The notes: generated by a model not told the origin, from the letters alone. Positions 1,377 to 10,746 are shown, numbered from the stretch's first letter. The stretch: DNA of 64,000 bases from a virus (IMGVR_UViG_3300020191_000008:1-64000), one strand, 5' to 3'. Numbers and translations: made by a program.

Positions 1377-1643
1377 TTACTTGGTGGGATCGTCACAGGC
1401 GGGACCAACCTCGCCAGAGCGACCTTGGGATTCGAAGAATTCCCCATCGCACATGCACAACCACCAACGAGATCTGCGAGCATCTTTCACCTTGAATTTG
1501 AAGAGTTCGACATTTTGGCCTCGACCAACTGCATCCACCCAAGCTTCCTTGGGAGTGGAACCAAAACCCTGATTGAGAAGCCCAACCCCAAAAGGGCAAG
1601 CATTTTTAACAGAGCGAACGACATAGTGTGTATAGGTAGCCAT
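1377..1643 (-). CDS. hypothetical early protein (88 aa)
   Basis: ORF directly behind a leaderless promoter. Confidence 0.7.
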   Translation of the reverse strand: MATYTHYVVRSVKNACPFGVGLLNQGFGSTPKEAWVDAVGRGQNVELFKFKVKDARRSRWWLCMCDGEFFESQGRSGEVGPACDDPTK

Positions 1644-1649
1644 GGGGGA

Positions 1650-1677
1650 ATAGTAATAGAATCAAATCTTTTTACAA
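1650..1677 (-). promoter_or_regulatory. sigma70-type leaderless promoter
   Basis: TTGTAA-N16-TACTAT-N6-ATG(1643). Confidence 0.65.
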
Positions 1678-1750
1678 GTAAAATCTGATCTTTTTTTATT
1701 CATTTTTGTGCTTTACTTTGGGGCTTTCTATAGTATAGGAAAAATCGCTC

Positions 1751-1825
1751 TAAGTCACTGATTAGTAAGGAGTTAGGGCTGCGCCCCCGCCGCTCCGCTC
1801 TAACTCGCTGATATTCAACGAGTTA
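1751..1825. repeat. paired-palindrome unit U1
   Basis: TAAGTCACTGATTAGTAAGGAGTTA (1751-1775) + 25-bp GC-rich spacer + TAACTCGCTGATATTCAACGAGTTA (1801-1825). Confidence 0.95.
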
Positions 1826-1836
1826 GGCGGGATTTT

Positions 1837-2079
1837 TTATTTATTTTTTTCTTGTATTCCTTTGCCTTTTTCTTTCCTTTGGTGGAACCAAGATTCTCCA
1901 TAGACAATGCCCTTTCTTTTGAAGAAAGCATCGCAAGCCTTGCTTATCTGCTCAGAAGTACCGCGAGGGATAGCGTCATAAACCCCAAAGGTTTTTTGCG
2001 TTGCTATTTTTGCAGTGCCGCCATTTGCCACAGCCTTCCAGTCTGAATTGTCGTAAGTTTTCATTGTTTTTATTTCCAT
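1837..2079 (-). CDS. hypothetical protein
   Basis: Last gene of a coupled leftward operon; alternative start MKTYDN at 2064. Confidence 0.65.
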   Translation of the reverse strand: MEIKTMKTYDNSDWKAVANGGTAKIATQKTFGVYDAIPRGTSEQISKACDAFFKRKGIVYGESWFHQRKEKGKGIQEKNK

Positions 2080-2273
2080 TTATAGTTATTAGAGACAAAC
2101 TCCCTGCCAAGTTCAATTGCTCCATGCAAAGATGTTTTGATACTTGTTTCTGTGCCTTCCTTATACCAAGTGAACCGGTAATCATCGCCATTTTCTTTGA
2201 CAAAGGTAAACCAAGGGCGTTTGTATTTGTTTGAATCCTTGAGGATTATTTTGGGTGTTTTGTTTTTAGTCAT
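2070..2273 (-). CDS. hypothetical protein (67 aa)
   Basis: Overlaps both neighbours by 8-10 nt, typical of translational coupling. Confidence 0.7.
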   Translation of the reverse strand: MTKNKTPKIILKDSNKYKRPWFTFVKENGDDYRFTWYKEGTETSIKTSLHGAIELGREFVSNNYKWK

Positions 2274-2556
2274 TTAGTTGTTCCTTTCCACATTCGATGA
2301 AGTGCATATGCTGCCTAGCATATTGATAGACCGTATTCATTGCTTCTTTAACCTCTTCCCTTTCTGAAAGAGCTTTATCCCAAGCCCCGTCTCCGTGAGG
2401 GTAGTAGTCTCTTTGATGGAAAGTTGTATCATAAAGGAGTTTGATTTGCGCTTCGCTTACAGCTTCAAACAATTCGTTGTATTCTTCGCGTAGCCTGTCT
2501 TCGCCTGATCCATTCATATGGAGGAACGGCATTGTGTATTTCTTAGTCATTTTCAT
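2266..2556 (-). CDS. hypothetical protein (96 aa)
   Basis: Coupled ORF with TATAAT upstream. Confidence 0.75.
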   Translation of the reverse strand: MKMTKKYTMPFLHMNGSGEDRLREEYNELFEAVSEAQIKLLYDTTFHQRDYYPHGDGAWDKALSEREEVKEAMNTVYQYARQHMHFIECGKEQLND

Positions 2557-2629
2557 TTTTCTTTTTTAAAGATTATATAAAGCAAAGCGATAATGATGTT
2601 ATATAAAGTCTCTATCCAATTGCTTTCGT

Positions 2630-3343
2630 TCATTTTGGTTCAACTACAAAACCTGTTTGATCTTTTTTTGCAAGACCTTTTTCGACAAGGCCAACGATCA
2701 CGCCCTTTGGATCTAGGAAACGGAGGTCCGTATCGTCTCCATTAACCACGGGATGGCCAAGATATTTTTCAGGGAGTGAACCACGGAAAACAACTGCCAC
2801 ATTGCCACCCTTATTCAAGATCCTTCTCATTCGATCATTGCTTGTTTCTTCAGAGCGGGAAAAGGTTAGGGAGTAATTTTTTGGCATTTTGCCATCAAGG
2901 AATTTGTGCATCCTGTAGCTACCTTTGGTGTAATCATAAAAGGCCAGATCAGGGAAGTGATCAAAAATGCTCTTGCCCTCAAAAAAGAATTGTTTTGCTT
3001 CCCAAGGAATATCAGAAGTTAGATTAAGACGGACGCAAGGCGTTTTATCATACTTCCGTGCCTTCTTTGCTCCAACAGTAATTTCTTTGTGAAGTTGGGC
3101 CATAAAAGTCTCGCGGTGTTGAAACAAGAATTTGGTTTTATTGATTCGCGCCTTTTGTACGTTCTTCATGATTCCACGTCCCGCCGTATTAAGGCAAGCC
3201 ATAGAGCAACCTTTACTTGCCCAGTGGCAAGTGTTGAAGCCAGAAAGCTTTGAAGGTGAGAGATGGATACCATAAGTGACATAACCATAAGCTAATCCCT
3301 TGATTGTTTTGCTGTTTCCTGAATTGAGTAATTTCATGCCCAT
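2630..3343 (-). CDS. Gp88-like phage protein
   Basis: Motifs NTCHWASKGCSMACLNTAGRG, VRLNLTSDIPWE, FYDYTK, YSLTFSRSE, GDDTDLRFLDP and VGLVEKG, recalled as the GP88 family. Confidence 0.8.
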   Translation of the reverse strand: MGMKLLNSGNSKTIKGLAYGYVTYGIHLSPSKLSGFNTCHWASKGCSMACLNTAGRGIMKNVQKARINKTKFLFQHRETFMAQLHKEITVGAKKARKYDKTPCVRLNLTSDIPWEAKQFFFEGKSIFDHFPDLAFYDYTKGSYRMHKFLDGKMPKNYSLTFSRSEETSNDRMRRILNKGGNVAVVFRGSLPEKYLGHPVVNGDDTDLRFLDPKGVIVGLVEKGLAKKDQTGFVVEPK

Positions 3344-3455
3344 AACGCTGTCTATTCTTCACAAAAATGAGCCTGCACCAAGCTTTTTTTTGATTTTTTA
3401 TTATTTAAATTTAGGGTTGACAGCCTAGTTTTTTTTGATATGGGAAAAAACCTCG

Positions 3456-3530
3456 TAACTCACTGATTGATAGGGACTTAGGGCCGCGCCCCCGCCGCTG
3501 CGCTCTAACTCCTTGATACTCAACGACTTA
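3456..3530. repeat. paired-palindrome unit U2
   Basis: TAACTCACTGATTGATAGGGACTTA (3456-3480) + 25-bp spacer + TAACTCCTTGATACTCAACGACTTA (3506-3530). The spacer is 23/25 identical to that of U1. Confidence 0.95.
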
Positions 3531-3551
3531 CAGCGATTTTTTTTTATTGAC

Positions 3552-3592
3552 AAAAGAAAAGCCCCGCCCCCCATGCAGAGGAGACGAGGCTT
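3552..3592 (-). terminator. intrinsic terminator after DUF932 gene
   Basis: Minus RNA AAGCCUCGUCUCC...GGGGGCGGGGCUU (G:U-rich stem) followed by UUCUUUU. Confidence 0.7.
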
Positions 3593-3608
3593 GCTATGAT
3601 AAAGGAGA

Positions 3609-4400
3609 CTAAGCAGGAAGAGCGAGCGCCTTGTCCTCCTCAGTAATTAGGGAAGGATTGGCAACTCTGTCAAGAATATTTTGTGCCTCCATTGTCATGC
3701 GGGGCAAGTGCATGACATTATTGGCAGTCAAATTCTTGTAAGACTCTGTCACGGCATTGAAGATATTCCAGAGTGTCCCACGGTATTCGTGGAAGGCTCC
3801 CTTGGTTCCGTTCACATCGACTCCACCATTTTGAACAAGATCAAGGAAGTCTCCAATCTTGGTGGGCTTGATAAGACCAGCCTTGAGAAGCTTGTTAATC
3901 ACTTCAACCTCGTTGGCTTCGGTGTTTTTGTAAGTCTCAATGCGCTTGCCTTCATTGTCCCAAGTCTGCTGAATAGACTGGATAGCCTTGTTCATGATAG
4001 AGGGGAGTTCTGAAAAGATGTTGCGAGTGTGCTTGCGTGACAAGGTAATGTCAGAGGAGAAGCAAAGATTCTCACAAACAAGCATTGAAGAACCAACTGC
4101 TACAGAGCTGGCAAACTTTTGATTGTGGGAGTTGCGAAGTCCAAAAACAAGCTCGCGATCTGTATTGTCGAAGTCGGACTTGCGGATAGAGAAACCAGAG
4201 AAGCAATTCATGCCACCTTCTGAAATGCCATGTTCTTCCTGCTTGATTTCGAAACCGTTGTTTCCCAACTCGCGCTTGGCAATATCGACCAATTCGTGGT
4301 GGTCGATAGGGAAGTGACGCGCACCCATAGGCTCAGGCTTTTCGATTTCCTTAAGTTGATCGTAGCTGACTTTGTTGGAGGAATAGATAAGGTTTTTCAT
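3609..4400 (-). CDS. DUF932 family protein
   Basis: Motifs PIDHHELV, GLRNSHN, VGSSMLVCENLCF, RKHT and TLWNIFNAVTE match the DUF932/DUF945 pattern. Confidence 0.8.
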   Translation of the reverse strand: MKNLIYSSNKVSYDQLKEIEKPEPMGARHFPIDHHELVDIAKRELGNNGFEIKQEEHGISEGGMNCFSGFSIRKSDFDNTDRELVFGLRNSHNQKFASSVAVGSSMLVCENLCFSSDITLSRKHTRNIFSELPSIMNKAIQSIQQTWDNEGKRIETYKNTEANEVEVINKLLKAGLIKPTKIGDFLDLVQNGGVDVNGTKGAFHEYRGTLWNIFNAVTESYKNLTANNVMHLPRMTMEAQNILDRVANPSLITEEDKALALPA

Positions 4401-4405
4401 AGTAC

Positions 4406-4426
4406 TTGTAGTTGTAGTTGTAGTTG
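4406..4426 (-). repeat. (CAACTA)3 tandem repeat in 5' UTR of DUF932 gene
   Basis: Plus strand (TTGTAG)3TTG immediately upstream of the start codon. Confidence 0.85.
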
Positions 4427-4456
4427 AATGTCAGAGACCGTCTCTGAACTGGGGAA

Positions 4457-4485
4457 AGTCTAAACCTTTTTTTTCTTAATGGCAA
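4457..4485 (-). promoter_or_regulatory. sigma70-type promoter for DUF932 gene
   Basis: TTGCCA-N17-TAGACT with an A-tract upstream. Confidence 0.75.
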
Positions 4486-4678
4486 CACCTTTTTTGCTTT
4501 TTTTGTTCTTTTTTTTGCTCCAACAATGCCAAATATTTTTGCAAATAACTTGACAAGCCGAAAAAAATGCCGCCAACAATGCCAGATATTTAGACAAATA
4601 AACAATAGGGCTCCACTAACATTAAGCTAAGGTTAAACAAATAAAGGCCAAATATTTACTTGACATGCCTCTGCATCA

Positions 4679-4797
4679 TAAGCCACTGATTCTCAATGAG
4701 TTAGAGTTATAGAAAAACGCTCTAAGTCACTGATATTCAATGAGTTACGGCGATCCGCCCGCCCCTGCCCGCTAACTCACTGATACTCAACGACTTA
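4679..4797. repeat. paired-palindrome unit U3 with an extra third box
   Basis: Boxes at 4679-4703, 4723-4747 and 4773-4797. The last two are 50 bp apart around a GC-rich spacer; the first sits 44 bp upstream across an AT-rich spacer. Confidence 0.95.
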
Positions 4798-4830
4798 CAA
4801 CGATTTTATTTTTTTTGTCAAGTCAAGAAA

Positions 4831-4854
4831 AAAAGCCCCAAAAAAGGGGCTTTT
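4831..4854. terminator. bidirectional intrinsic terminator
   Basis: AAAAGCCCC-A6-GGGGCTTTT flanked by A and T runs. Confidence 0.75.
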
Positions 4855-4887
4855 ATTTTTTATATTATTTAAATTTTAATTATTATT

Positions 4888-4927
4888 AAGGCGGCTCCCC
4901 GCCAAGCGATAAACGAGGAGCCGCTTT
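4888..4927 (-). terminator. hairpin directly after ParB-like gene stop
   Basis: AAGGCGGCTCCCCG...CGAGGAGCCGCTTT imperfect stem. Confidence 0.55.
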
Positions 4928-4932
4928 AACCA

Positions 4933-5976
4933 CTAACCAAATTTAGCATAAGTTTCAATAGCATTTTTCAAAACTTTTACATGCGAATCATGTCTTCTAG
5001 AAGATCGAAAGCTGCCTTGTTGAGAAGCAAAGTTATAGCTTGCAAAATCCGTTAGATTAATTCGACTTGATAACTGGTTCCCTGTTGTTGTAACTCTTCC
5101 ATATTGAAGGGCTGCAATTATTTGTTTTTTATCATAATTAGACATGCCAGAATTCCTGTTGTTATCACTAAGGAGATCGAACAAACCAGCCCAAACTGTG
5201 CCGCCCCATTTTTGATAGTTCATTTTTGGGAATACTTCTTTTACGATATCAATAACATCTTTTAAAATTTTAAGGGCTTTCTTTTCTTTTTCTTCTCGCC
5301 GCATCTGAAGGGATTCAAGGTTAGCCCATGTATTTTTTATCCAATGATTATGAATAGAAGCGATTCTACATCCTACATCAACAGGCTTGTTGTTCGCTGG
5401 ATTACAAGGAGTGAAGCCAGCATCAAGGAAAAATTCAATGATTGTTTTTCTATGCTCCTCATCTCTGATTTCAGGGCAGCGATCAAGCTCAACAATTTTA
5501 CCCCAGAACATGTCATTTATGCTCCATGATCTTTTGCGGGATGCATCGTTGGCCTCTAAGCAGCGGGTGACCGCAGCTTTTGTATTTACGATACGGCAAA
5601 GAATTTCTTCTTGCTGGTTGGCGCAACAGCGATGCTGACCATCAACGATTTGATAATAAAATTTATTATTGTGTTTAATTTTATATACAGCAGGAACATC
5701 AAAATTTGCCATATCGAATTTTTTGGCAATGTTCTGAATTTGTCTTTTGCTTGCTGTGCGTTGATAGGATTTGTCAATTCCAAGATATTTTTTGGGAATG
5801 ATCGCTAGCTTCTGGTTGCAAAGAGTTGTTTCTTTGAATGCCTTGGTTATTCCTTCTCCTCCTAAGCCATAGGAGCATTCCTTGCCATCTACAGTGAAGG
5901 TTTCTTTTGATGAGGCATGAGATTTAATCTCTTTTGAATAATCCTTTTTAGTTGTGGTTTTTGTTTTGGTTTTCAT
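4933..5976 (-). CDS. ParB/Srx-like N-terminal (DGQHR) domain protein
   Basis: YQRT...IQNIAKKFD...YQIVDGQHR motif. Start moved to MKTKTK (5976), behind an A/C-rich leader, to avoid overlap with the lysozyme gene. Confidence 0.75.
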   Translation of the reverse strand: MKTKTKTTTKKDYSKEIKSHASSKETFTVDGKECSYGLGGEGITKAFKETTLCNQKLAIIPKKYLGIDKSYQRTASKRQIQNIAKKFDMANFDVPAVYKIKHNNKFYYQIVDGQHRCCANQQEEILCRIVNTKAAVTRCLEANDASRKRSWSINDMFWGKIVELDRCPEIRDEEHRKTIIEFFLDAGFTPCNPANNKPVDVGCRIASIHNHWIKNTWANLESLQMRREEKEKKALKILKDVIDIVKEVFPKMNYQKWGGTVWAGLFDLLSDNNRNSGMSNYDKKQIIAALQYGRVTTTGNQLSSRINLTDFASYNFASQQGSFRSSRRHDSHVKVLKNAIETYAKFG

Positions 5977-6038
5977 GGTTTTTGGTTTTTGTTGTTTTTG
6001 TTGATTACTAGGAATGGTGCCTAGCAAAATTTTTTGTT

Positions 6039-6611
6039 TTAAATTTCCCCTTTCCATAGCGAAAGCTCCCAAGCTCTGCGCCGCTCTAATCCTTTGCGAA
6101 CCTTTCCTCCTGCTCTACGGTATAGAGGTAAAATCTTTTCAACGCTTTTATAGTTGCCAGAGTTTAGGCGATCTTTCCCATTCACAAGCTTCCTGAGATT
6201 TGTCAGGCCGCAATTGAAGGTGAAAGAGGTCAAAGCATTCAGTTGATTGTCTGAAAGCTTCACTTGAACTTCCTCGCGCACTTTTGCTTTTACTTTGTTC
6301 ACTTCTTTTCTGAGTAAGGCTCTTGCTTGCGGCTCACTTATCCAACCTTTTCGGAGTGCTCTTTTGTCAGTGCACCCGTAACCTATTGTTCGGACTCCCG
6401 CGCAGCAGTAGTATGGGCGAGGTTTGAAGCCTTCGAAGTGAACGAGGCCCTTCTCAAGTTCCTTGTCCCAATTATGACGCTTGACCAATGGAAAGACCAG
6501 AAGGGGGCGGTCTGTCACGTTGTGAGTGATGACAAAGGCGGTTTGCCCTTGGCATCCGAAGAATACCAAGAGCGTGAAGATTGCTGCTAGAGTAAGAATG
6601 AAAGTTTTCAT
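6039..6611 (-). CDS. GH24 (T4/P1-type) lysozyme with N-terminal hydrophobic anchor or lipoprotein-like signal
   Basis: HFEG...PY..CAGVRTIGYG, LSDNQLNALTSFTFNCG and GLERRRAWE; catalytic E60-X8-C69-X5-T75. Confidence 0.9.
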   Translation of the reverse strand: MKTFILTLAAIFTLLVFFGCQGQTAFVITHNVTDRPLLVFPLVKRHNWDKELEKGLVHFEGFKPRPYYCCAGVRTIGYGCTDKRALRKGWISEPQARALLRKEVNKVKAKVREEVQVKLSDNQLNALTSFTFNCGLTNLRKLVNGKDRLNSGNYKSVEKILPLYRRAGGKVRKGLERRRAWELSLWKGEI

Positions 6612-6817
6612 GACCTTGAAGCTTCTCTGATTTTCTGAATCATACGCGCCGCATCAGCGCGGGAGATAATAGGGGAAGTCCAGACGGATGGCCCGACCTT
6701 CACCGATGCGATTGGCTCAAAGTATTGGCACTGCTTTGGGTAAACCTCAAGTCTAATATTCTCGTTTTGGTAGACTTTACAGAGGCCCTTTCGTGTGACT
6801 GTGTAGTTTTTGGACAT
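6608..6817 (-). CDS. hypothetical protein (69 aa)
   Basis: Stop overlaps the lysozyme start (ATGA); has its own promoter. Confidence 0.8.
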   Translation of the reverse strand: MSKNYTVTRKGLCKVYQNENIRLEVYPKQCQYFEPIASVKVGPSVWTSPIISRADAARMIQKIREASRS

Positions 6818-6823
6818 GAAGGG

Positions 6824-6852
6824 ATTTTACTGGAATTTATTGAGTGGAACAA
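6824..6852 (-). promoter_or_regulatory. sigma70-type leaderless promoter
   Basis: TTGTTC-N17-TAAAAT-N6-ATG(6817). Confidence 0.7.
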
Positions 6853-6879
6853 GTTTTTTTTGCATCTTTTTTTAATTTC

Positions 6880-7062
6880 CTAAAGGTATTCTTTGACGTA
6901 ACTACGAGCATCGTCAAGATGTTCTGCATCGTCGAGCTCGTTAAGAATTGCTGCCTTAATCTTCTCAATCATTTCAGGAAGATCAGACTTACTGAACTCT
7001 AGATGCTCAATCCCCTCGCAGTAGTCGAGGATAATGTTTTGGATCTTATCTGTGTTGGACAT
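6880..7062 (-). CDS. acidic hypothetical protein (60 aa)
   Basis: Start reassigned to MSNTDK (7062), preceded by TATACT-N6. The longer track ORF crosses a promoter and another gene. Confidence 0.7.
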   Translation of the reverse strand: MSNTDKIQNIILDYCEGIEHLEFSKSDLPEMIEKIKAAILNELDDAEHLDDARSYVKEYL

Positions 7063-7068
7063 GGGCGG

Positions 7069-7097
7069 AGTATAAAGGAAAGCCTTAAAAAAGAAAA
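7069..7097 (-). promoter_or_regulatory. leaderless promoter
   Basis: TTTTCT-N17-TATACT-N6-ATG(7062); the -35 is weak. Confidence 0.6.
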
Positions 7098-7117
7098 GCT
7101 TTTTCTGCATCTTTTTT

Positions 7118-7249
7118 TTATTGGATGCAGAACCACCCAAGATTTTTGGGGTCCATCTTAGAGATCCATGCTTCACACTCTTCGCGTGTGCCTGAGAACT
7201 CGGCATCCTTAGAGTAGTTGTGGTATACTGTGTATGTCTTTGTTTTCAT
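7118..7249 (-). CDS. small hypothetical protein (43 aa; not in ORF track)
   Basis: MKTKTYTVYHNYSKDAEFSGTREECEAWISKMDPKNLGWFCIQ*, preceded by TATACT-N6-ATG. Confidence 0.7.
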   Translation of the reverse strand: MKTKTYTVYHNYSKDAEFSGTREECEAWISKMDPKNLGWFCIQ

Positions 7250-7255
7250 GAACGT

Positions 7256-7284
7256 AGTATAGCAGAACCTCAGGGGATTAGAAG
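7256..7284 (-). promoter_or_regulatory. leaderless promoter
   Basis: CTTCTA-N17-TATACT-N6-ATG(7249) with an upstream A-tract. Confidence 0.6.
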
Positions 7285-7366
7285 ACTTTTTTTTCATTTT
7301 TAAACATTTTTTTTCTTAGAAAAAAGCTTGACTCTCCTCTTGTTTACTATAAAGAAAAATTCTTTG

Positions 7367-7441
7367 TAAGTCGTTGATACTCAATGAGTTACGGCTCGCG
7401 GCGGGGCCGAGGCCCGTAACTCGTTGTCGTTCAGTGAGTTA
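7367..7441. repeat. paired-palindrome unit U4 (spacer apparently inverted)
   Basis: TAAGTCGTTGATACTCAATGAGTTA (7367-7391) + 25-bp G-rich spacer + TAACTCGTTGTCGTTCAGTGAGTTA (7417-7441). Confidence 0.95.
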
Positions 7442-7547
7442 CAGCGTTTTTATTTTTTATTGTTTTTTTATGGTGAAAGGCTTGACATTATCGCGATTCT
7501 GTCAGAAAATGAGGTGACACCCTGAAACCAAGCACACTAGGTCAAGA

Positions 7548-7580
7548 GAAAACCCGCCAGCCTCCGAAGAGACTGACGGG
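7548..7580 (-). terminator. intrinsic terminator
   Basis: Minus RNA CCCGUCAGUCUC-UUCG-GAGGCUGGCGGG-UUUU (UUCG tetraloop). Confidence 0.85.
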
Positions 7581-7600
7581 CCACACACACTAGACACACA

Positions 7601-8020
7601 CTAGAAAGCTTTTTTAGGGAATAGGAGTCTGAAGAAGTGCCACAGGGAAAACAAGCGACCTTCGATCTTGGCGATGCCTGACACGTGGAGAGTGCGGTAC
7701 TTCTCAACAAAGCCATCATCCAAGTCAATGCACTTAGCCGTGAGGCATTTACGGTTGTCATCGCTCATCCAAATCCTTTCAATGTCCTTGATGATGAAAC
7801 GGCGGACTCCGTCGAACTTAACGGAAGAAGAGTTGTTTGTGTGGTAGGTGACAACCCGACCAATGACTCTCACGCATAACTCGTCAGCTGTCTGACGGTA
7901 CAAGTCTAGCAATGAACTCTTGGACTTCGAGAGAAGCTTAAGAGAGGAGTAAGATAAACCCAAAAGGCTAGCCAAGATTACAGGGAGGAACGGATTAGTG
8001 ATGATGTCTTGTAGTGTCAT
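7601..8020 (-). CDS. membrane-anchored protein with possible WYL-like domain
   Basis: Start MTLQD (8020) avoids overlap with the upstream gene. N-terminal hydrophobic helix, then VTY...GVRRF...LTAKCID...YRTLHVSGI, resembling the WYL pattern. Confidence 0.55.
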   Translation of the reverse strand: MTLQDIITNPFLPVILASLLGLSYSSLKLLSKSKSSLLDLYRQTADELCVRVIGRVVTYHTNNSSSVKFDGVRRFIIKDIERIWMSDDNRKCLTAKCIDLDDGFVEKYRTLHVSGIAKIEGRLFSLWHFFRLLFPKKAF

Positions 8021-8061
8021 AACGAGTTTATTTTGGTTTAGATTTTGGGTTTGGTCAAGAT

Positions 8062-8277
8062 TTATTTTCCATATACGAAGCGGAGTTCCTTGCTCCACTT
8101 TTCGACCATTTTGGCTTCGTGACCGTTAGGCTTCTTGATGGCAACGGGAAGCCATTTGTTGATCATGCGCTTGAGCTTGCGCTCTCTCAACCACTCGCCC
8201 AAGTGAATGCCGATAGCAAAAGGAAAAGTGATGATGATGATGGCCTTGTTGATGAGGTTCTGGTTTTTGAAGTTCAT
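8062..8277 (-). CDS. small membrane protein (71 aa)
   Basis: Hydrophobic AIIIITFPFAIGIHLG segment; in operon. Confidence 0.7.
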   Translation of the reverse strand: MNFKNQNLINKAIIIITFPFAIGIHLGEWLRERKLKRMINKWLPVAIKKPNGHEAKMVEKWSKELRFVYGK

Positions 8278-8314
8278 GGTGTTAGCTTAGTGTTTTTGGG
8301 TTAGTTGTAAAGAT

Positions 8315-8476
8315 TTATTTTGATTTTTTAAAGACTACCTTGCCAGCTTCTGCGGTGGCGGCCCAGTCGATAGGGTTTGCCTCGCGCTTCTCTTGGCACT
8401 CGTCGTTCCACTTGGCTTGACTGGCTCTTGCGGATTGAAGTCTCTTGTAGTAGTTGCTTGTCTTGGTTGCTTTCAT
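8315..8476 (-). CDS. small hypothetical protein (53 aa; not in ORF track)
   Basis: MKATKTSNYYKRLQSARASQAKWNDECQEKREANPIDWAATAEAGKVVFKKSK* behind a leaderless promoter. Confidence 0.7.
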   Translation of the reverse strand: MKATKTSNYYKRLQSARASQAKWNDECQEKREANPIDWAATAEAGKVVFKKSK

Positions 8477-8482
8477 GGTGGA

Positions 8483-8512
8483 AGTATACTTGATTTTTTG
8501 GGGGTTCGTAAA
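8483..8512 (-). promoter_or_regulatory. leaderless promoter
   Basis: TTTACG-N18-TATACT-N6-ATG(8476). Confidence 0.65.
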
Positions 8513-8537
8513 GAAAAAAAGAATTTATTTTTTTTCA

Positions 8538-8792
8538 TTAGTAAATGCTGGCTCTTAGCTTAATGACTGGCACCAACTCTTTGGCTGGTGTTTGGTTTTG
8601 CGTGTGTTGCTCAAGTGCGCTTTGAGCTTCTTCCACCCACCTTGCAACAGGCAGGTGAGTCATGGCTGATACCATTACTGAGTCAGCGTTTAATGTACCG
8701 TGTGCATTTGTGAAGTAAAAGCAACCGCTGCCGTTACCGCCTTCTATCTCAAGCCCAAGGTGGGAAATTGCTTTGTTAATTCTTGCTCTCAT
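8538..8792 (-). CDS. hypothetical protein (84 aa)
   Basis: Likely start MRARINK (8792); first gene of the leftward block. Confidence 0.7.
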   Translation of the reverse strand: MRARINKAISHLGLEIEGGNGSGCFYFTNAHGTLNADSVMVSAMTHLPVARWVEEAQSALEQHTQNQTPAKELVPVIKLRASIY

Positions 8793-9002
8793 ATCTGGAT
8801 AGAGCATGAAGCAACGAGCCCACAATTAAAAGCTTTTTTTTGCATAAAATGCATTTTTATTTAGGGGAGGGGTTTTTTGAAAGTTTTTGACTTTTGCACT
8901 TGACACACAAAGCGCGGGGGGTGGTGAACACTATAAGTAAACTTTTTTTATAACTAATGGGGGATGCGCCATATAATAAAATATAGCTACATGTTTAAAA
9001 GC

Positions 9003-9704: not shown

Positions 9705-10079
9705 ATGAATAAAGTTTTCTGTTCTTCCTGCGGCCACAAAAATGTGTATGAAGTGGTCAAACCAAAATTTTGTGCGGCGTGTGGCACTCAAATTGGAGTT
9801 GTTGCGGCTACTCCAGCGAAAAGAGAAGTGGTAGCAGAGATTGAATATGAAGAAGAGACTCCTCGCTCTTTTGATTTACGGAGATTAAAAAACGATATTG
9901 TGGCTGAAGCTAATACAAACAAAACAACATTAACAGACTTATGGAAATCTGCTACTCCTGAAGATGCTAGCAGGGGGAATTTTTCTAGGCCAGCGCCCAA
10001 CTTACCTGATGGTGAGGCAATGATTAAACAAAGCCAAGCAGATTGTGCATCTTCTAGAGTTCAAGATATTGATGGATAA
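9705..10079 (+). CDS. double zinc-ribbon protein
   Basis: FCSSCG...KFCAACG; preceded by TTGAAT-N17-TAAAAT-N5-ATG. Confidence 0.8.
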   Translation: MNKVFCSSCGHKNVYEVVKPKFCAACGTQIGVVAATPAKREVVAEIEYEEETPRSFDLRRLKNDIVAEANTNKTTLTDLWKSATPEDASRGNFSRPAPNLPDGEAMIKQSQADCASSRVQDIDG

Positions 10080-10746
10080 AAGGTATGAAGACCTTGTTCC
10101 AGAAATTGAAGAGCTTTTAAATAGATATAGATCTAAGTGGCAACTTAACTCCATAGCTTGGTTGGATTATGATGATGTTTGTCAGATAATCCGCACTCAT
10201 ATCTATAAAAAGTGGCATTTGTGGGATCAGAAGAGAGCATTTAAGCCTTGGGCTTCTATGTTGATTAGTAATCAGATAAAGAATCTGATAAGGAATCACT
10301 ATGGAAACTTTGCAAAGCCGTGTTTGCGGTGTTCCTTTTATTTGGGGGGAGATGAGTGTGGTTTTACAAAGAGTAGAGAGCAGGATGAAGAGTGTGAGGA
10401 TTTTGCTAAATGGAAGAATAAAAAACAAAATGCTTTCAACTTAAAAATGCCAGTATCTTTGGATTCATTAATATCTGTTAAAGATAGAATAAATGAAGAT
10501 GAGTTAGACTATGATAAGAAAGTGGGCAAGATACATGATTTAGTAATGGATCAATTAAATGAAAAGCACAAAGAAATATATAAGCTTTTGTTTATAGACC
10601 ATGAAGATGAAGTGAAGGTGGCTAAGAAGTTTGGATTTAAGAGAGATACAAGTAAAAGAAAAACACCTAGATACAAACAAATAAACAATCTCAAGAAGAA
10701 GTTTTATAATATAGCAATAAAGGTGATAAAAGAGGAGGATTTATAA
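10072..10746 (+). CDS. phage sigma70-family-like factor with 4-Cys insertion
   Basis: Region-2-like DYDDVCQ..WHLWD..FKPWASMLISNQIKNLIR and region-4-like HTH at the C-terminus. Start MDKRY overlaps the upstream stop. Confidence 0.7.
   Translation: MDKRYEDLVPEIEELLNRYRSKWQLNSIAWLDYDDVCQIIRTHIYKKWHLWDQKRAFKPWASMLISNQIKNLIRNHYGNFAKPCLRCSFYLGGDECGFTKSREQDEECEDFAKWKNKKQNAFNLKMPVSLDSLISVKDRINEDELDYDKKVGKIHDLVMDQLNEKHKEIYKLLFIDHEDEVKVAKKFGFKRDTSKRKTPRYKQINNLKKKFYNIAIKVIKEEDL

Follow-up and report, generated by a model that had tools for sequence, protein, structure and literature searches.

IHF-assisted promoters of phages are exemplified by the H' site and PL of lambda and by Pe of Mu, and classical IHF sites are single, asymmetric and provided with an upstream A-tract, which in the lambda H' site is separated from the consensus by a gap of about 9 bp. 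In the BIME-1 or RIP (RIB) mosaics of E. coli, two inverted REP palindromes flank an IHF site. Dispersed phage operators, represented by the C1 operators of P1, the stoperators of Cluster A mycobacteriophages and the 17-bp palindromes of Cluster O, are single short sites bound by a phage repressor. The IHF consensus itself is WATCAR-N4-TTR, that is WATCARNNNNTTR (PMC9519438). In T4-type phages, PeSL (promoter-early stem-loop) cassettes have been described by Arbiol et al. 2010 (PMC2839356) and Comeau et al. 2014 (PMC4122927), and these papers mention neither palindromic boxes nor IHF. Tandem AATCAACGACTTA repeats of the Stenotrophomonas phage DLP6 are visible in a published Table 1, where they are not discussed as a motif (PMC5349666).

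The window, i.e. the whole 64-kb stretch of viral DNA analysed here, contains four units of 75 bp, each consisting of a 25-bp box, a 25-bp spacer (about 89% GC) and a second 25-bp box. They are present exactly where the earlier note placed them: unit 1 at 1751–1825 (boxes 1751–1775 and 1801–1825, spacer 1776–1800), unit 2 at 3456–3530, unit 3 at 4723–4797 and unit 4 at 7367–7441. A solitary ninth box, missing from the earlier list, occupies 4679–4703 as a third box 19 bp to the left of unit 3, with one mismatch to the box consensus; neither this box nor the units have an assigned strand. Nine boxes in 64 kb (box consensus, at most three mismatches) compare with 0.17 expected by chance, and none of 100 shuffles of the window reached this number. 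The consensus scan of the whole window revealed no box past 7.5 kb, in agreement with the former remark that the core genes carry no copies. The two boxes within one unit differ from each other, while the spacers of units 1 and 2 are identical at 23 of 25 positions. The spacer of unit 3 is C-rich on the + strand, and that of unit 4, which has a near-identical counterpart in the relative L066, is G-rich on this strand and hence inverted with respect to units 1–3. On the + strand, all four units are preceded by an A-run and followed by a long T-run (a T-rich run at 1833–1850 after unit 1, T9 at 3537–3545 after unit 2).

The units divide a leftward accessory cassette array (1377–8825, − strand) composed of small ORFs together with GP88-like (2630–3343), DUF932 (3609–4400), ParB-like (4933–6072), lysozyme (6039–6611) and WYL-like (7601–8020) genes. 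Opposite to the array and divergent from it lies a rightward conserved block with PhoH (9022), a Zn-ribbon protein, a sigma-like protein and the large terminase. Intrinsic terminators of the ordinary type occur on the − strand between the DUF932 gene and unit 2 (3559–3592), between the ParB-like gene and unit 3 (4831–4854), and after the gene 7601–8020 (7551–7582), where unit 4 lies beyond the terminator in the gene direction. Three units are entered by promoter-like elements of the + strand: at 1712–1739 into unit 1 (TTTACT, 16 nt, TATAGG, then an A-run; family geometry), at 3417–3444 into unit 2 (TTGACA, 16 nt, TATGGG, then A6), and at 7328–7355 into unit 4 (TTGACT, 16 nt, TAAAGA, then an A-run; −35 hexamer at −39, family geometry). 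The −35 hexamer of the unit 2 element starts 39 bp before the box, and −39 is the family peak (65 arms). The most conserved gene of the array has a predicted fold similar to a stand-alone WYL domain, not to a palindrome binder. The window phage encodes a tape-measure protein of 1522 aa, and its matches to cultured phages are only distant.

Scanning of relatives, proposed in the earlier note, demonstrated that the units recur as a large family: about 120 stretches of contigs from uncultured viruses contain 345 of them, of which 290 are distinct. The start-to-start spacing of boxes is exactly 50 bp in 314 of the 331 pairs lying 48–54 bp apart, an invariance partly built in by the collecting pattern, which demanded a 25-nt spacer; a relaxed rescan allowing any spacing gave few exceptions (eight of 49 bp and five of 51 bp), and the reversed control pattern gave no matches in this rescan. 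Mean GC of the spacer is 0.89 family-wide, its layout is a G-run followed by a C-run, and the conserved stretch of the unit extends from −4 to +80. The flanking A/T tracts, previously noted beside the boxes, are pronounced in the window, yet many members of the family do without them: T-runs of at least five follow only 30–50% of units, with no preference for the sense direction even directly after a stop codon. With 81% of the total sequence coding, 307 of 345 units are nevertheless intergenic, and the upstream stop is nearer than the downstream start (within 30 bp in 35% vs 11% of units). The units are limited to the accessory array beside PhoH and, in a complete genome of 148 kb, to two short clusters. 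No match to them was found in cultured phages, Rfam contains no matching family, and the scan of genomes of 185,579 species returned only phage-like MAG contigs and one chance match. MAG bins with related contigs are labelled Flavobacteriaceae and Verrucomicrobiales, groups without an IHF consensus known to us; to judge from the TTGACA-type promoters, the host may be a different one, of the proteobacterial type. These rigid 75-bp elements are a large family in uncultured marine phages, apparently not described previously.

The full 13-mer of the IHF consensus is present on at least one strand in 385 of 580 boxes, and its core TCAR-N4-TTR in 562. None of 2000 permuted consensus patterns reached 385 (mean 1.3, maximum 241). 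The motif was compared with more than one consensus sequence, which brings some multiple-testing risk. Box position 18, the sole degenerate conserved position, is occupied only by A or G, as the consensus demands. The “free” centre triplet is mostly TAC, GTA, TTA or TAA and so completes the WA of one half-site, which occurs in about 75% of boxes vs about 34% expected from base composition. In the window, eight of nine boxes carry the perfect 13-mer, always on the − strand, i.e. the gene strand: at 1751–1763 and 1801–1813 in unit 1, 3456–3468 and 3506–3518 in unit 2, 4679–4691 in the solitary box, 4723–4735 and 4773–4785 in unit 3, and 7367–7379 in unit 4. This half-box match, as well as the inward-facing promoters, had been missed in the earlier note.

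The match has its deviations. One third of boxes are without the full 13-mer, and G20-A21 (T5-C6 on the other arm) are also conserved inside the N4 of the consensus, which may point to another protein. If the lambda H' geometry of the 1IHF complex were doubled symmetrically, TGA and TCA would be about 5 nt apart; in the boxes, the half-sites overlap and these triplets are 3 nt apart, and therefore one IHF dimer cannot read both arms canonically. An A-run does exist at −10 to −6, at 19–23 bp from the W of the consensus, which is not an H'-type distance. Genes of the HU/IHF family were found neither in the complete unit-bearing phage, nor in the partial relative G002 (43% complete), nor in DLP6, and for the Zn-ribbon and sigma-like proteins, the conserved neighbours, cultured phages gave no homologue; together, these data point to a host factor as the box-binding protein. 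The suggestion of selection for a protein–DNA geometry is supported by the invariant bases, the rigid spacing and the absence of RNA-type covariation. The accompanying statement that the boxes share the same DNA face does not agree with simple arithmetic: for average B-DNA, 50 bp would correspond to 50/10.5 = 4.76 turns, which leaves the two boxes roughly a quarter turn apart in phase.

The inward element TTGACA-N16-TAnnGn with an A-run occurs at the fixed position −39 in 123 of 300 units (about 41%), is preceded by T/A runs, and lacks the final T of its −10 hexamer (TAnnGn). Its polarity is pronounced: the spacer is G-rich on the promoter’s strand in 72 vs 18 cases, the promoter is antisense in 45 vs 9 cases when located between tandem genes, and the gene beyond the unit is opposed to it in 85 vs 54 cases.

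We suggest that the units represent host-IHF-bound architectural boundary elements between early gene cassettes and not a recombinase system, a proposal based on sequence to which we give about an even chance. The 25-bp box would be a quasi-palindromic docking site for a host DNA-bending protein of the IHF type, composed of two overlapping inverted copies of WATCAR-N4-TTR. The unit would combine two such sites as a direct repeat, 50 bp centre to centre, leaving the 25-bp GC-rich core largely protein-free; two 35-bp IHF footprints and a 15-bp linker would give about 85 bp, corresponding to the conserved stretch. We infer that IHF binds to the units, and the bound unit may fold the DNA between neighbouring early/accessory cassettes into a fixed nucleoprotein structure, placed after the end of the upstream gene (often past its terminator) and before the promoter of the next one. 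About four in ten units lie directly downstream of a promoter-like element firing into them, usually against the gene direction. Possibly, the unit serves the early region as an architectural boundary or insulator and in promoter control, as a regulatory cassette of the PeSL kind based on IHF sites. Exchange of cassettes and homogenisation of spacers may then be side effects, with the conserved 75 bp offering patches of homology.

A bolder version of this proposal, which we regard as doubtful, is a phage-private “double IHF clamp”: marine phages (and, with other geometries, many freshwater and T4-like ones) would recruit two host IHF dimers per rigid 75-bp module at every early-cassette boundary, and a chiral double U-turn plus an antisense promoter over the G-rich core would insulate the cassettes. 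If true, the clamp would block read-through or supercoil diffusion, or keep host silencers from spreading along AT-rich phage DNA, and would time early expression. It would then be a viral boundary element of a new, chromatin-like class, and would drive cassette shuffling as well.

The boxes could be operators of a phage-encoded dimeric regulator of unknown family (e.g. a repressor for early-transcription shut-off), with the IHF resemblance being coincidental or reflecting a convergent DNA-shape readout. This is unlikely: the dyad symmetry with invariant bases, the extra conservation of G20-A21 outside the IHF consensus, the operator-like centring of box a at about +17 of the inward promoter where it is present, the lack of boxes in bacterial chromosomes (phage-like MAG contigs excepted) and the genome-specific spacers all agree with it, but about 35 ORFs, neighbouring or conserved, gave no HTH, RHH or other DNA-binding family, the WYL-like fold of the most conserved array gene is not that of a palindrome binder, and the same 13-mer occurs in the unrelated T4-like phage DLP6, which is without the two tested neighbour proteins. 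Quite unlikely is a unit that acts mainly as RNA, either a bidirectional intrinsic terminator or a gene for an antisense small RNA of about 95 nt (promoter, long hairpin, U-run and G-rich apical region). The boxes are DNA motifs and not RNA stems: compensatory covariation is absent, with pairing of variable positions at or below chance both within and between boxes, so the box1:box2 RNA hairpins proposed before are not supported as the selected feature. In units oriented by the promoter, the transcribed strand shows no excess of G-U over A-C. The units do fold well (z-scores −2.5 to −5.5), those of the window have A-runs before and long T-runs after them, the inward promoter at a fixed distance would give a G-rich transcript, and T-runs fed by a promoter somewhat exceed the others in length (4.1 vs 3.5). 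Nevertheless, 59% of units have no inward promoter, T-runs of at least five follow only the 30–50% of units noted above and are indifferent to sense, ordinary separate terminators already adjoin three of the four window units, and no Rfam family matches. Identity with intrinsic terminators was rejected on the same grounds of covariation, G-U asymmetry and the facultative, not sense-biased U-tract; individual copies, among them those in the window, could still act as terminators.

Gene content between the units indeed varies among relatives while the units persist, a point that the earlier note proposed to test; the ParB-like cassette, for one, is found in different slots bounded by units. Several homology blocks begin or finish exactly at unit edges (homology to L066, L043, L010 and L098 stops at 3531, the edge of unit 2), assemblies often break at unit regions, and spacers are homogenised within a genome (7.4 vs 11.4 mismatches; 0 of 300 permutations). 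These features would suit units that serve as sites of a system for recombination or mobility (attC-like, REPIN/RAYT-like or MITE-like) dedicated to moving gene cassettes, yet such a system is very improbable. A role of the units as special break points is not supported: the rate of homology breaks is 0.71 at units vs 0.57 at other long intergenic gaps (per gap, 0.58 vs 0.55), a modest elevation, and the break points are spread over flank and unit and are not sharp. The complete 148-kb relative G003, which has seven units, contains no tyrosine or serine recombinase (integrase, resolvase) and no Y1 transposase; in the Phage_integrase domain search it was negative, while all control genomes scored. 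A tyrosine-recombinase spacer would not fit into a 3-bp centre, and the 2-bp stagger of serine recombinases does not go with an odd length. Moreover, the cassettes have their own promoters and terminators, and the data are accounted for by ordinary homologous recombination between repeats of 75 bp.

Three known types of repeats were rejected on separate grounds. Integron attC sites do not fit, since G003 has no IntI-type Phage_integrase domain, the sequence is conserved, and variable positions pair at or below chance. REPIN/BIME (REP doublets) do not fit either, given the absence of Y1_Tnp in G003 and the species-genome scan with its phage-like MAG contigs and one chance match. A CRISPR mini-array would not have spacers of 89% GC with a G-run/C-run design, homogenised per genome, or boxes that differ within one unit. 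An injection-stop signal, also considered earlier, is not supported: that of T5 is a different structure, formed by 131-bp inverted repeats with eight DnaA boxes in the untranslated part of the terminal repeat (10.1101/866236), and nothing alike is seen here.

Like the dispersed phage operators, the units are many intergenic copies of one (putative) protein-binding motif, but they are rigid pairs confined to one region, and no repressor candidate was found. With BIME-1/RIP they share the nature of dispersed intergenic repeats, often at the 3' ends of transcription units, in which IHF-type sites and structured GC-rich DNA form a fixed mosaic; in the units, however, the IHF-type sites are outside and the GC core inside, and the elements are phage-private, absent from bacterial chromosomes and have no RAYT. 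Each position that the 13-bp consensus of IHF sites specifies finds its match, the two purine degeneracies included, and, as in the IHF-assisted phage promoters, the sites adjoin phage early promoters. Differences from classical IHF sites are the overlap of two inverted consensus copies in one palindrome, the conserved G-A inside N4, the pairing at 50 bp around a GC-rich core, and the many repeats per genome.

An independent parallel is provided by the cultured phage DLP6 (KU682439.2), which contains 24 exact copies of TCAACGACTTA (control, 0); every copy inspected is preceded by AA, which makes the full consensus. Most copies form tandem pairs at a distance of 25 bp, with a GC hairpin and a sigma-70-like promoter behind them; the consensus directly adjoins the A-run, and DLP6 has no full 25-bp box. 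The likeness to the units comprises the 13-mer itself, with CGAC/CGAG in the place of N4, the 25-bp periodicity, and the intergenic location beside a GC hairpin and promoter. In contrast to the units, these are direct single half-sites that share the orientation of the genes and precede the hairpin and promoter, and no palindromic boxes flank the GC element.

The PeSL cassettes are also among the closest known systems. Both are repeated intergenic regulatory cassettes concentrated in a hyperplastic accessory region, where for the units cassette differences between relatives were found, and both are tied to gain, loss and replacement of small genes. The sigma-70-like promoter of PeSL, which lies behind an AT-rich tract, resembles the promoter-like element found with part of the units, although the −10 of the latter lacks the final T, and in both the GC element runs from polyG to polyC. 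In PeSL the promoter drives the downstream ORF, whereas that of the units is facultative, inward-pointing and usually antisense or opposed to genes; the stem-loop that acts as a terminator in PeSL has a possible counterpart in the spacer, which is just 25 nt long, lies between the boxes and goes with the facultative T-run. The invariant core of the units, two IHF-type palindromes of 25 bp at a rigid 50-bp spacing, is a further difference from PeSL. The best reading of the units is that they are a variant of PeSL-type cassettes.

The earlier note had claimed four two-box units in this DNA, at 1751-1825, 3456-3530, 4723-4797 and 7367-7441 (units 1 to 4), and all four are present at exactly these positions. 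Each has the same layout: an A-run, a 25-bp box (box a), a 25-bp GC-rich spacer, a second 25-bp box (box b) and a T-run. A scan of the 64 kb with the box consensus detected nine boxes against 0.17 expected by chance; the ninth is a solitary box at 4679-4703, outside the four units, and the scan finds none in the remaining 56 kb. The genes flanking the units all lie on the minus strand and include GP88-like and DUF932 genes, a gene with a weak ParB-like N-terminus, a lysozyme gene and small ORFs. A separate operator-like repeat occupies 4520-4670, between unit 3 and the promoter of the DUF932 gene: AATGCCAAATATTT is present three times and ACTTGACA(A/T)GCC twice ahead of that gene. Promoter-like hexamers occur very near start codons on the minus strand at 1640-1690 and 3344-3380 (for example, TTGTAA, 16 nt, TACTAT, 6 nt, ATG for gene 1377-1643), so leaderless or nearly leaderless mRNAs would be expected; no Shine-Dalgarno sequence is visible ahead of several array genes.

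The window is phage DNA, with genes for PhoH, sigma-like proteins, the large terminase, a 1522-aa tape-measure protein and ribonucleotide reductase; a search for tRNAs found none. Near and distant DNA searches against cultured phages gave no match to the window, tblastn of the Zn-ribbon and sigma-like proteins against them gave no homologue, and the large terminase matches proteins of Bacillus and Clostridium phages at no more than 23-25% identity. Judged by these comparisons, cultured phages are distant relatives only. The Zn-ribbon protein (CxxC...CxxC; 9705-10079, plus strand) and the sigma-70 region-2-like protein (10045-10746, plus strand) are both conserved, and their genes always follow PhoH, adjoining the unit array.

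The element, which the earlier note had proposed to scan for in relatives, belongs to a large family: the two-box pattern recurs in uncultured viral contigs, where at least 119 stretches match it. The collected loci hold 345 units (290 distinct) with a mean spacer GC of 0.89. Since these loci were collected with a pattern fixing the 25-nt spacer, which builds in part of the invariance of spacing, any distance was also allowed; the box spacing is then exactly 50 bp in 314 of 331 close box pairs, and a reversed control pattern has no match. According to our own crude greedy ORF calls, 307 of the 345 units are intergenic although coding sequence makes up 81% of the DNA; they occur between tandem, convergent and divergent genes, and the stop codon upstream is nearer to them than the start codon downstream. 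The complete 148-kb relative (G003) has seven units in two short clusters. No description of the 75-bp element was found in the literature. Among 185,579 bacterial and archaeal species, matches to the pattern are confined to two MAGs, in which the contigs concerned are phage-like, apart from one chance match. A host regulon motif was rejected, the nearest bacterial MAG (G001, 4.1 Mb) having boxes on a phage-like contig only. Its contig C42 begins at window position 8802, with 83% identity from there onward, and its sole unit lies at the end of another short contig; since many related viral contigs also end in a unit region, the units seem to break assemblies.

The conserved information resides in DNA sequence rather than in RNA structure. 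Box positions T1 A2 A3, T9, A17 and T23 T24 A25 are near-invariant, and at the variable positions no compensatory pairing was found, either within a box or between the two boxes (observed not above expected). With units turned to the direction of their promoter, G-U mismatches (247) are as frequent as A-C mismatches (223), so neither strand is selected for RNA folding. An RNA hairpin is thereby rejected, both the box1:box2 pairing that the earlier note had suggested and pairing inside a single box, and Rfam at gathering and permissive thresholds matches no family to the units. Termination is likewise rejected as the core function, because T-runs are facultative (five or more T after only 30-50% of the units) and lack a sense-direction bias even where a unit directly follows a stop codon. 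Separate ordinary terminators adjoin three of the four window units.

A search of the literature for the half-box turned up a paper on DLP6, a cultured T4-like Stenotrophomonas phage (KU682439.2), in whose Table 1 TCAACGACTTA precedes terminators (PMC5349666). The motif appears in this terminator table without being discussed as a motif (PMC5349666). The DLP6 genome has 24 copies of this 11-mer (control 0), with AA ahead of every copy displayed. Most of them form tandem pairs 25 bp apart, placed between a stop codon and a GC hairpin followed by a sigma-70-like promoter (TTTACT...TATAAT). The derived sequence AATCAACGACTTA perfectly matches the consensus of the bacterial DNA-bending protein IHF, WATCARNNNNTTR (PMC9519438).

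In the marine family, the full IHF 13-mer is present on at least one strand in 385 of 580 boxes and its core in 562; 2000 permuted consensus patterns all fall well short of this level. The sole degenerate conserved box position holds A or G only, as the IHF consensus demands, and the centre triplet, seemingly unconstrained, is in most boxes TAC, GTA, TTA or TAA, which completes the WA of one half-site. Boxes a and b of a unit have their perfect sites on one strand in 93 cases and on opposite strands in 16, so two quasi-palindromes in direct repeat make up the unit. In the window, eight of the nine boxes carry a perfect 13-mer, all on the minus strand, which is the gene strand. Conservation in the family spans -4 to +80, which would correspond to two 35-bp IHF footprints with a 15-bp linker. 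The strand of the IHF site is linked only weakly to other polarities (spacer 76:55 and 49:55, promoter side 50:27, gene strand 87:56). Two observations count against IHF: G20-A21, inside the N4 of the consensus, is conserved too, and the overlap of the two half-sites exceeds that expected of a symmetric IHF site.

Many units are coupled to promoters. In 123 of 300 units we found an inward-facing element consisting of T/A runs, cTTGACA, 16 nt, TAnnGn and an A-run, whose -35 hexamer begins 39 bp ahead of the box; 30 units have it on both sides, and in the window promoter-like elements of this kind accompany units 1, 2 and 4 on the plus strand. The spacer is G-rich on the promoter strand in 72 cases versus 18, and between tandem genes the promoter is antisense to the genes in 45 versus 9. 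If active, such a promoter would centre box a near +17 and would yield a G-rich RNA of about 95 nt ending at the T-run.

A host protein is the simplest candidate for the binder, because no HU/IHF-family gene was found in the complete unit-bearing phage, the partial relative G002 (43% complete) or DLP6, the conserved neighbours lack homologues in cultured phages, and Pfam and PHROGs scans of about 35 ORFs revealed no DNA-binding domain. A phage-encoded binder was set aside on the domain scans of these ORFs. Beside the triple-box site, the gene at 4933-6072 (minus strand) weakly resembles ParB in its N-terminal part (PHROG E 1e-3) and is also weakly DUF6551-like; this family is present in only eight loci, in differing unit-bounded slots, and thus cannot supply the general binder. 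The most conserved gene of the accessory array is that at 7601-8020 (minus strand): 41 loci contain 43 copies of it, most of them directly following a unit. It has no Pfam or PHROG match, and its AlphaFold model (pLDDT 80) weakly resembles the WYL domains of BrxR, CapW and PafBC (Foldseek E 5e-3); the gene may encode a free-standing WYL-like protein, perhaps a decoy with an anti-defence role.

Relatives keep the gene order GP88-like, unit, DUF932, unit, lysozyme, unit, WYL-like gene, followed in the opposite direction by PhoH, Zn-ribbon and sigma-like genes. Genes between units do vary while units persist, a check suggested in the earlier note: the genes differ, and the ParB-like cassette changes slot. 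Several homology blocks begin or end at unit edges, and, of the informative comparisons, homology breaks in 71% of those spanning a unit-bearing gap, 57% of those spanning another gap of at least 100 bp and 19% of those spanning a short gap. For unit pairs with one common flank, mismatch is intermediate at the near box (0.28) and almost random in the spacer (0.40-0.43 versus 0.47 for random pairs), which indicates spread rather than sharp break points. Spacers differ at 7.4 positions within a genome and 11.4 between genomes (0 of 300 permutations), which indicates gene conversion or recent copying. The dedicated recombinase system envisaged earlier is unlikely, since G003 encodes no tyrosine recombinase, serine recombinase or Y1 transposase; ordinary homologous exchange between conserved 75-bp patches suffices to explain the data. 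Such exchange at repeats was likewise proposed for PeSLs, the promoter-early stem-loop cassettes of T4-type phages (PMC2839356, PMC4122927). The missing enzymes also bear on two known repeat types: attC was rejected for want of a tyrosine recombinase in G003 and because the sequence is conserved without compensatory pairing, and REPIN for want of a Y1 transposase there and because the bacterial scan yielded only phage-like MAG contigs and one chance match. A mini-CRISPR was rejected because the GC-rich spacers have a common G-run/C-run design and are alike within a genome, and because the two boxes of a unit are not identical. The analogy with the T5 injection stop was set aside after comparison with the T5 description, and with it the proposed injection pause.

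We consider the units most likely to be a boundary and control element of an early cassette array bound by host IHF, giving this sequence-based reading about an even chance. If host IHF does bind such a module wherever two cassettes of the early or accessory array meet, uncultured marine phages, as a large group, rely on a nucleoid protein of the host for the organisation of their first-expressed genes and probably for the timing. Many of these genes (DUF932, ParB-like, SprT-like, WYL-like) resemble genes with anti-defence or takeover roles. The same reading would provide a concrete cis-element for early regulation in phages without a cultured representative, and would explain the assembly breaks and cassette shuffling in unit regions. 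The tandem sites of DLP6 offer a laboratory system for a direct test of the IHF idea. Three described systems come closest: classical IHF sites at early promoters of phages; the BIME-1/RIP mosaic of E. coli, which has the inverse layout of the unit; and the PeSL cassettes, in which a promoter is combined with a polyG/polyC stem-loop and which, unlike the units, have neither palindromes nor IHF sites (PMC2839356, PMC4122927).
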